NCBI GenBank assembly: GCA_000004695.1
Contig: CM000153.2
Location: forward strand, 2,752,001 to 2,816,000
Origin: Dictyostelium discoideum
Taxonomy: Eukaryota
DNA: 64,000 nucleotides
Direction of reading: 5' to 3'
Below, piece by piece: positions 51,238-52,850 of this stretch (positions within the stretch are counted from its first letter, which is position 1; each line of letters starts with the position of its first letter). Under the pieces are notes generated by a model. It saw only the letters and a list, made by a program, of their open reading frames with translations, was not told the origin of the DNA and did no database searches. A program made the translations under genes and the position numbers.

Positions 51238-52314
51238 TTATTCAGTATTACTATAATTTGAGATTGCACTGAATAAACTTTCAGCATTTGGAAAAGGTGA
51301 AACTATATCAACTTTAATATTATGTGTTTTTAAACAATTTTCTGTGGTTTTACCAATTGCTGCAACTTTGATTTTATTATTATTATTATTATTATTATTA
51401 TTATTATTATTATTATTATTATTATTATTATTATTATTATTATCATTATTATTATTATTATTATTATTAAAAATTGATGTTCTTGGTAGTGATAATGCTG
51501 ATAATTGATTATCAATTGTTTCCAATACAAAATCTACACCTGATGGACTAAAGAAAACTAACCAATATATTTCCATTTTATTTGATTGTAAAACCCTTTT
51601 AATTAAATTTAAAATATCATTAATACTATCATCTGAAGTTTGTGATTGATATGTTACTAATTCCTTTAATTGAATATTATTATTTTTTAAATATAATGGT
51701 AATTCTTCCCTTCTTTGATTACCACAAAAATATAAAAGTGCTTTATTATTATCATTATTATTATTCTCTTTATATTCATTATTATAATCTAAAGTGATCC
51801 TTTTTGCTAAATCTGTTGCATTTGATTCTACAACTATTACATTTTGAGATATCCATTTACCAAATACCTTTTTAAATAAATTACAACTAGTTTCTCCAAT
51901 TAAGTATATATGTTTAAATTTTAAAATATTATTGAAAAAAATTTGTGTTTCTCTATTATTATTATTATTATTATTATTATTATTATTATTATTATTATTA
52001 TTATTATTATTATTATTATTATTATTATTATTATTATTATTATTATTATTATTATTATTATTATTATTATTATTATTATTATTATTATTATTATTATTAT
52101 TATCATTATTATTATTATTGATGATGTTTTCTTTTTCAAAAGAGGATAAAAAAGTATCTATTGACTTTATAGAATTACTACTTGTTAATATAATACCAAA
52201 ATATTCAATATCACTATTACCATTGGGATCATATAAAAGTTTTAGATTATCATATTGATAATCAATTACTAAAACTTTTATGAATTCTGTGTTGTATTTA
52301 TCATTTTTAAAATT
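51238..52314 (-). CDS. hemD: Uroporphyrinogen-III synthase (UROS/HemD) with two very long poly-Asn insertions; main exon complement(51238..52314); the 5' exon carrying the ATG is unresolved
   Basis: The minus-strand frame is open from the acceptor (TTTTAG, plus 52315-52320) to the stop at 51238. It reads NFKNDKYNTEFIKVLVIDYQYDNLKLLYDPNGNSDIEYFGIILTSSNSIKSIDTFLSSFEKENII(N~56)RETQIFFNNILKFKHIYLIGETSCNLFKKVFGKWISQNVIVVESNATDLAKRI..KALLYFCGNQRREELPLYLKNNNIQLKELVTYQS..MEIYWLVFFSPSGVDFVLETI..(N~38)KIKVAAIGKTTENCLKTHNIKVDIVSPFPNAESLFSAI*. It is collinear with human UROS blocks ([91 protein letters not shown]). The candidate first exons (ATG at 52423 encoding MKLMILITK, or ATG at 52504) do not give a phase-compatible splice, so the start is uncertain. 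The symbol hemD is an assumption. Confidence 0.65.
   Translation of the reverse strand, partial: NFKNDKYNTEFIKVLVIDYQYDNLKLLYDPNGNSDIEYFGIILTSSNSIKSIDTFLSSFEKENIINNNNNDNNNNNNNNNNNNNNNNNNNNNNNNNNNNNNNNNNNNNNNNNNNNNNNNNRETQIFFNNILKFKHIYLIGETSCNLFKKVFGKWISQNVIVVESNATDLAKRITLDYNNEYKENNNNDNNKALLYFCGNQRREELPLYLKNNNIQLKELVTYQSQTSDDSINDILNLIKRVLQSNKMEIYWLVFFSPSGVDFVLETIDNQLSALSLPRTSIFNNNNNNNNDNNNNNNNNNNNNNNNNNNNNNNKIKVAAIGKTTENCLKTHNIKVDIVSPFPNAESLFSAISNYSNTE
51951..52120. repeat. (ATT)n microsatellite of about 56 units lying in coding sequence. On the minus strand it encodes poly-Asn within UROS; a second coding (ATT)n tract lies at 51361-51475.
   Basis: Pure ATT repeat with a single ATC. The repeat phase puts AAT (Asn) in the UROS reading frame; the other minus frames would read Ile or stop. 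Confidence 0.85.
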
Positions 52315-52850
52315 CTAAAAAAAAAAAAAAAAAAAAAAAAATTAGATATTAATAGATTAGATAATATTTTTTAAAATGAAGAATAATGAATACCTACTTG
52401 GTAATAAGGATCATCAATTTCATTGTCGTTATTTATTTTTGGTGATTTAAAAAACACTATATTTTTAATCATTGATTTTACTTGGGGTGGGGTTTCAGTA
52501 TCATATCCGAAATAATAAAACTTTTTTATTTTTTTTTTTTTTTTTTTTCAGAATAAAAAAAAAATAAAAATTTAAAAAATAAAAAAAAAACAATTCTTAA
52601 TAAAAATAATATCTAAATCTGAATAGTATCCTTAAAAAAAAAAAAAAACAATTCTAAAAATAAAATAAAACCTAGATTTTAATTTCTCACTTTTTTTTTG
52701 TATTTTTACATTGATATATGATTATATTGATATATTATCATTAATCATTTTTTTTTTATTTTGTATTTTTATTGAAATTACTACTATATATGATATGATA
52801 TTTAAAAATCTTTTTAAATTTTTTTTTTTTTTTTTTTTTTTTTTTTAATA

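Follow-up and report, generated by a model that had tools for sequence, protein, structure and literature searches.

A two-exon uroporphyrinogen-III synthase gene of Dictyostelium discoideum with two long, probably young poly-asparagine loops

The region analysed here (hereafter the window) is a stretch of 64,000 nucleotides (nt) from Dictyostelium discoideum (GenBank assembly GCA_000004695.1, contig CM000153.2, positions 2,752,001 to 2,816,000 of the forward strand), and all positions below are counted from its first letter. Its minus strand carries a gene for uroporphyrinogen-III synthase (UROS/HemD), the fourth enzyme of heme synthesis. The gene is made of two exons separated by a single short intron, and the reading frame of the second exon runs through two long (AAT)n microsatellites, which appear as (ATT)n on the plus strand and are read as runs of asparagine (Asn). 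The gene order (a TPR-like gene, UROS and a rhodanese-domain gene) is common to the window and to the corresponding loci of its relatives. The features of the gene are collected in Table 1.

Table 1. Features of the UROS gene, in window positions.
Feature	Position	Strand	Description
UROS/HemD gene	51238..52472	minus	2 exons, 383 codons
Coding exon 1	52472..52398	minus	75 nt, 25 codons, encodes MIKNIVFFKSPKINNDNEIDDPYYQ, ends in phase 0
Single intron	52397..52315	minus	83 nt, GTAGGTATTC...T25-TAG, 88% A+T
Coding exon 2	52314..51238	minus	358 codons plus stop TAA (51240..51238)
Poly-Asn tract 1	51955..52119	minus	residues 91-145, 165 nt, 55 codons: 54 AAT and 1 GAT (52104..52102)
Poly-Asn tract 2	51376..51468	minus	residues 308-338, 93 nt, 31 codons: 30 AAT and 1 GAT (51444..51442)
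Short third tract	51745..51765	minus	residues 209-215, NNNNDNN, in another variable loop

The joined coding sequence has 1152 nt and gives a protein of 383 amino acids, with canonical GT..AG splice sites in phase 0. Downstream of an in-frame TGA stop at 52550, the first ATG in the frame is that at 52472. Exon 1 ends at the donor CAA/GTAGGT (52398/52397, the slash marking the exon boundary), whose GT begins at 52397. The stop codon and the acceptor AG (52316..52315) that leads into exon 2 are both present where the original prediction had placed them. Exon 2 opens with NFKNDKYNTEFIKVLVIDYQ and holds the HEM4 domain together with all three Asn tracts. When the protein was compared by phmmer with human UROS (1jr2, E 6.7e-11), the segment DDPYYQ/NFKNDKYNTEFIKVLVIDYQ aligned contiguously across the exon junction, which therefore lies inside one continuous homologous segment. 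Exon 1 aligns with the N-terminal region of the human enzyme, the true N-terminal strand being MIKNIVFFK, and in the AlphaFold model it forms a strand (residues 2-8) and a helix (22-28) with a predicted local distance difference test (pLDDT) score of 85-92.

This structure settles the 5' end of the gene, which had been considered unclear and tentatively ascribed to a non-canonical start, a micro-exon or an assembly error, since the exon from ATG 52472 joins 52314 in phase 0. The original prediction had held that no first exon could be spliced to 52314 in a compatible phase, and had named transcript evidence for one as grounds to revise that view. A simple phase-0 exon does exist and is kept in three related genomes, which is the comparative form of such evidence. 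Two candidates were tried and rejected. That at 52398..52423 is 26 nt long, leaves two bases over and misses the true frame by 1 nt; that at 52482..52504 has 23 nt, also leaves two bases over, misses the frame by 2 nt and lies upstream of the true start. The first of these had the right donor (52398) with the wrong ATG and the wrong frame. Specifically, ATG 52423 is 1 nt out of the exon 1 register, so that MKLMILITK, taken to be the N-terminus, is exon 1 misread. The N-terminus had also been thought to be present twice, but the second copy, EFIKVLVIDYQ, aligns with residues ~28-40 of human UROS, that is, with the second strand rather than the N-terminus. The supposedly unresolved first exon is a frame-reading error.

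The assignment to uroporphyrinogen-III synthase, already made in the original prediction, is borne out by sequence and structure comparisons alike. The Pfam family HEM4 (PF02602) matched with 68.2 bits (E 7.4e-19; gathering cutoff 27.5), and with the tracts deleted the score rose to 78.6 bits, the match then running unbroken from position 40 to position 230 of the 231 in the profile. The AlphaFold model has a mean pLDDT of 75.3 and a predicted template modelling score of 0.63, and 268 of the 383 residues reach at least 70. Its two-domain alpha/beta fold is superimposable on solved UROS structures, and the top 13 matches in a Foldseek search of the PDB were all UROS/HemD, the best being 1jr2_A (E 2.5e-14, template modelling score 0.66 normalised to the target). 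In the structural alignment only 17% of the residues are identical to those of human UROS. Still, T69, S70, R226, R227, Y247 and FFSPS 279-283 are invariant in an alignment of nine sequences, and AAIGKTT is retained. The T-S motif after strand 3, the Tyr of the V/T-Y-Q motif, FFSPSG and G-x-T-T, which are all kept, presumably belong to the active-site cleft described for the human structure. Without the tracts the protein would have 297 amino acids, a normal size for UROS. A weak Pfam match to Presenilin on residues 91-145 (E 0.0017, 17.6 bits with a cutoff of 34.3) was discarded as a low-complexity artefact of the Asn tract.

The two long tracts have the composition N5-D-N49 and N8-D-N22, and the short third one N4-D-N2. 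Both long tracts rely on a single codon, AAT in 54 of 55 and 30 of 31 positions, and Tandem Repeats Finder describes them with period 3 and 97-98% matches. Together they contribute 84 Asn and 2 Asp to the protein. The same-frame translation through both tracts agrees with the original prediction, and so, closely, do its figures for tract 1 (about 170 nt, 56 Asn and one Asp). Its estimates of 115 nt and about 38 Asn in tract 2, and of about 95 Asn in all, were too high, and the repeats are not perfect. Exactly one AAT has been replaced by GAT (Asp) in each tract, the short third one included (51751..51753). In both long tracts the GAT lies near the 5' end with the long pure stretch 3' of it, as if expansion were polar, and in the short tract the two halves are about equal.

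The original prediction had also pointed out that the other two minus-strand phases of the repeat give Ile (ATA) or a stop (TAA) and that only the Asn phase preserves the open reading frame. Both statements are true, the second needing no special explanation because triplet slippage moves in multiples of three and the seeds were already in-frame AAT codons. That a frame stays open across an AAT repeat when it is read as Asn follows automatically. What is informative is that homology to UROS is found on either side of each tract with the frame unchanged.

In the predicted fold, only residues 97-144 and 310-336 have a pLDDT below 50, and these are the two tracts; the UROS fold surrounding them is modelled with confidence. 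Tract 1 is placed by the AlphaFold model between a helix (71-96) and another helix (143-155), and tract 2 between a helix (282-298) and a strand (340-345), so the insertion into loops of the two-domain fold that had been proposed from the sequence is also what the model indicates. The insertion points correspond roughly to V82/W83 and D217/Q218 of the human enzyme, as judged from the phmmer alignment together with residue numbers counted by hand in the human protein. When 1.84 billion representatives were searched with a profile, 14,064 family members were obtained at E no higher than 0.001, and loop spacing was measured in the best 150 of them. From the TS motif to the next conserved Gly (site 1) the median spacing was 30 residues, with a range of 23-61, compared with 94 in the window; from FFSPSG to AIG (site 2) it was 23, with a range of 6-47, compared with 61. 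Both loops vary in length throughout the family and carry unrelated insertions in other lineages. For example, one UROS homolog of 333 amino acids (P0053) carries eight consecutive Asn (N8) in the loop that holds tract 2 here, and its counterpart of the tract 1 loop contains a long insertion rich in Thr, Pro and Ser; low-complexity sequence has therefore been inserted independently at both sites.

The age of the tracts can be glimpsed by looking at the closest relatives. The nearest proteins in a database of 5.8 billion clusters are those of Dictyostelium cf. discoideum (P0001, 93% identity) and of two D. citrinum assemblies (P0002 and P0003, 80-82%), with lengths of 301-312 amino acids. The corresponding loci (L001 for D. 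cf. discoideum, L002 and L003 for D. citrinum) lie on contigs of 2.5-5 Mb. All three share the 75-nt exon 1, the GTAGGTAT donor, the intron position and the TAG/AATTTTAAAAATGAT acceptor. Their introns are 91, 69 and 78 nt long, at the identical position and with indel differences, and the flanking exons are free of indels. The differences within exon 1 are mainly third-position ones (e.g., GATGATCCT vs. GACGACCCT, TAC vs. TAT). By the Nei-Gojobori method the ratio of non-synonymous to synonymous substitution rates (dN/dS) is 0.15 between the window and D. cf. discoideum (dS 0.10) and 0.35-0.42 with D. citrinum (dS 0.23-0.26). Purifying selection is therefore acting on the gene, which is not a pseudogene. 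Along these lines, the enzyme looks functional, and its activity has probably been retained.

D. cf. discoideum carries (AAT)4 at site 1 and (AAT)3 at site 2. The two D. citrinum assemblies have AATAAT or AAT AAT AAT at site 1, followed by non-repeat sequence, and at site 2 GATAAT (DN, L002) or AATAAT (NN, L003). The long tracts are thus confined to the lineage of the window, as the original prediction had suspected. A four-way DNA alignment shows clean gaps of 153 and 84 nt in L001 opposite the two tracts and nearly complete base-for-base agreement in the flanks, which points to recent in-frame slippage expansions. With D. citrinum as outgroup, the parsimonious reading of these sequences is a more than 10-fold expansion in the lineage of the window since a divergence of dS ~0.1. 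Assembly collapse as a cause of the short tracts in the relatives was considered and rejected, given the 2.5-5 Mb contigs and a (TAT)37 repeat present in L001 ~800 nt upstream of the gene. That repeat, in the region of the upstream TPR-like gene (2187..2297 of L001), has only 11 units in the window (53231..53263), so that the turnover of triplet-repeat length between lineages goes both ways. The third loop, NNNNDNN in the window, is expanded in one D. citrinum assembly (L003, gene coordinates ~526..591) and not in the other, so that the loop of the enzyme that expands varies from one lineage or strain to another.

Repeats of this kind are a common property of the genome. The window itself has ~13-28% G+C and contains 26 pure (AAT)n tracts of at least 8 units, several of them in-frame in other long open reading frames (a VPS9-domain protein, a TPT-family transporter, an AT-hook protein and a frame of 1053 codons). 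The last of these (58678..61836, plus strand) gave no Pfam match; it has five pure in-frame (AAT)n tracts of at least 8 units, the longest with 36 units at 61483..61590. For D. discoideum, 3064 perfect triplet repeats of at least 20 units have been reported, with Asn or Gln tracts of at least 20 residues numbering more than 2966 in coding sequence, and length polymorphism is found among natural isolates at other Asn loci (Scala et al., 2012, PMC3460934). Sucgang et al. (2011, PMC3188802) counted 11,243 homopolymers in D. discoideum; of those that lie in genes with D. purpureum orthologs, only 5% keep their position, and single-codon tracts are regarded there as a sign of recent expansion. How some 10,000 homopolymer tracts are tolerated is considered an open question (PMC9234386, PMC13093961). 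Coding poly-Asn tracts are thus a well-documented, genome-wide property of Dictyostelium, of which the UROS locus is a typical, already known instance.

Compared with the solved UROS/HemD structures (human 1JR2, the Thermus thermophilus 1WCX/3D8N series, Pseudomonas 3RE1 and 4ES6), the window protein shares the two alpha/beta domains, and with the family PF02602 it shares the TS, CGN-RRE-LP, Y-Q, FFSPSG and G-x-TT motifs. What sets it apart from the family are the two disordered Asn stretches inserted into it, 55 and 31 residues long. These in turn resemble other coding (AAT)n/poly-Asn tracts of D. discoideum (Eichinger et al., 2005, as cited in PMC9234386; PMC3460934; PMC3188802) in that they use the single codon AAT in more than 20 units, occupy hydrophilic loop positions, are not conserved in orthologs and are recent. 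Nothing is qualitatively different, although tract 1 with its 54 Asn is at the long end, and the host is a small metabolic enzyme, whereas reviews describe such tracts as enriched in regulatory or weakly expressed genes. Asn-rich low-complexity insertions in loops of globular housekeeping enzymes are also found in the A+T-rich genome of Plasmodium falciparum (PMC3749963). Their function is debated, and they are probably largely neutral. That is a different lineage, and no common origin is claimed.

These observations taken together make it very likely that the locus is an ordinary functional UROS gene with two young, probably near-neutral poly-Asn loops generated by slippage. The host is an intact, expressed-type housekeeping gene with one short 5' intron in a genome of the D. 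discoideum group with ~20% G+C. Two short AAT runs would already have been present as seeds in two surface loops whose length varies in the family, and in this lineage replication slippage may have taken them from ~3-4 codons to their present lengths of 55 and 31. As a trinucleotide repeat changes in steps of three, the frame would have been kept, and the phase of the AAT seeds would have made every added residue a hydrophilic Asn. The tracts would then be translated and would protrude as disordered loops from a two-domain UROS fold that is normal in every other respect, most likely as near-neutral passengers with no function of their own.

Some observations count against this interpretation. 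The two loops of the window are the longest among the 150 family representatives sampled, and loops of such length may affect folding or activity. Tract 2 ends 2 residues before the Lys aligned with human K220 and 8 before the conserved GKTT loop. The case for the splice junction and for the translation of the tracts is a comparative one, built from sequences, and the exact 383-amino-acid product has no match in a collection of 15 billion proteins.

Another reading gives the tracts a role of their own, either as a prion-like or aggregation-prone module that would tie the abundance or solubility of UROS to chaperones or stress, or as a linker of tunable length involved in domain closure. Their length is unusual for the family, and tract 2 abuts the strand leading to the GKTT loop. 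Predicted prion-like proteins of D. discoideum do change solubility with stress (PMC13093961), and the bias of repeat frames to Asn and Gln has been used as an argument for selection (PMC9234386). But neither the sister lineage, only dS 0.10 away, nor D. citrinum has the long tracts, and the use of a single codon indicates a young age. Coding Asn repeats vary as much as matched non-coding ones (PMC3460934), and repeats are mostly non-conserved and enriched in weakly constrained genes (PMC3188802). Heme synthesis is also not known to be linked to regulation of this sort. We regard a function of the tracts as very improbable. A slightly smaller chance still is given to the more specific proposal that the loops might be non-neutral, making the solubility or turnover of the enzyme sensitive to stress or chaperone capacity, or with their length tuning domain closure and thereby activity; if this were true, repeat length would act as a "dial" on tetrapyrrole flux.

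Smaller again is the chance that the gene is a pseudogene or that the repeat lengths and the 5' end are assembly artefacts. Long pure microsatellites are indeed hard to assemble, and the exact product is, as said, absent from the public collection searched. However, the coding sequence is uninterrupted with canonical splice sites, the conserved motifs are intact, dN/dS with the nearest relative is low, each tract is broken by one GAT of its own, as real sequence would be, and an error in repeat number by whole units would leave the frame unbroken. The least probable explanation is that the tracts behave as introns or exitrons and are lost from the mRNA, to give a mature enzyme of ~297 amino acids like that of the relatives, an idea favoured by the 301-312 amino acids of their proteins and by the similarity in composition of very A+T-rich stretches to Dictyostelium introns. 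However, neither tract contains a GT or an AG, and any in-frame GT..AG pair spanning one would also delete at least 16 (tract 1) or 27 (tract 2) flanking residues conserved in relatives (for tract 2, FFSPSG would be lost in part or completely with the candidates that start at 51548 or 51562), so that the tracts cannot be cleanly spliced out. As the relatives have no more than 3-4 AAT units in their genomic DNA, splicing is not what makes their proteins shorter.

The significance of the locus is mainly one of annotation hygiene; it is a textbook illustration of known points and opens no new question. One such point is that in Dictyostelium short Asn-codon seeds in indel-tolerant loops, even of small essential enzymes, can grow more than 10-fold; in UROS they did so within dS ~0.1 and left the rest of the protein undisturbed. 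The locus could also serve as a test case for the tolerance of a globular enzyme to a disordered insertion of 55 Asn-rich residues. Searches of the literature for a described UROS/hemD gene of D. discoideum found nothing specific.

Another point is that short 5' exons (75 nt in this case) are easily missed in very A+T-rich genomes, and at least two other dictyostelid UROS models are apparently fused to the gene upstream for this reason. These public models, P0010 (532 amino acids) and P0147 (623 amino acids), both dictyostelid in appearance, join the neighbour directly to exon 2 of UROS and skip exon 1. The neighbour is the ortholog of the TPR-like gene of the window in P0010 and a polytopic membrane protein in P0147. 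In both, the inconspicuous first exon has probably led the annotation to merge two genes.

At the other end of the gene, a (TATT)25 repeat (51126..51227) begins ~11 nt past the UROS stop codon and reads as (TAAA)n/(AAAT)n on the gene strand. Each pair of units re-creates AATAAA, and the 3' untranslated region and the convergent intergenic spacer are therefore a long array of potential poly(A) signals.

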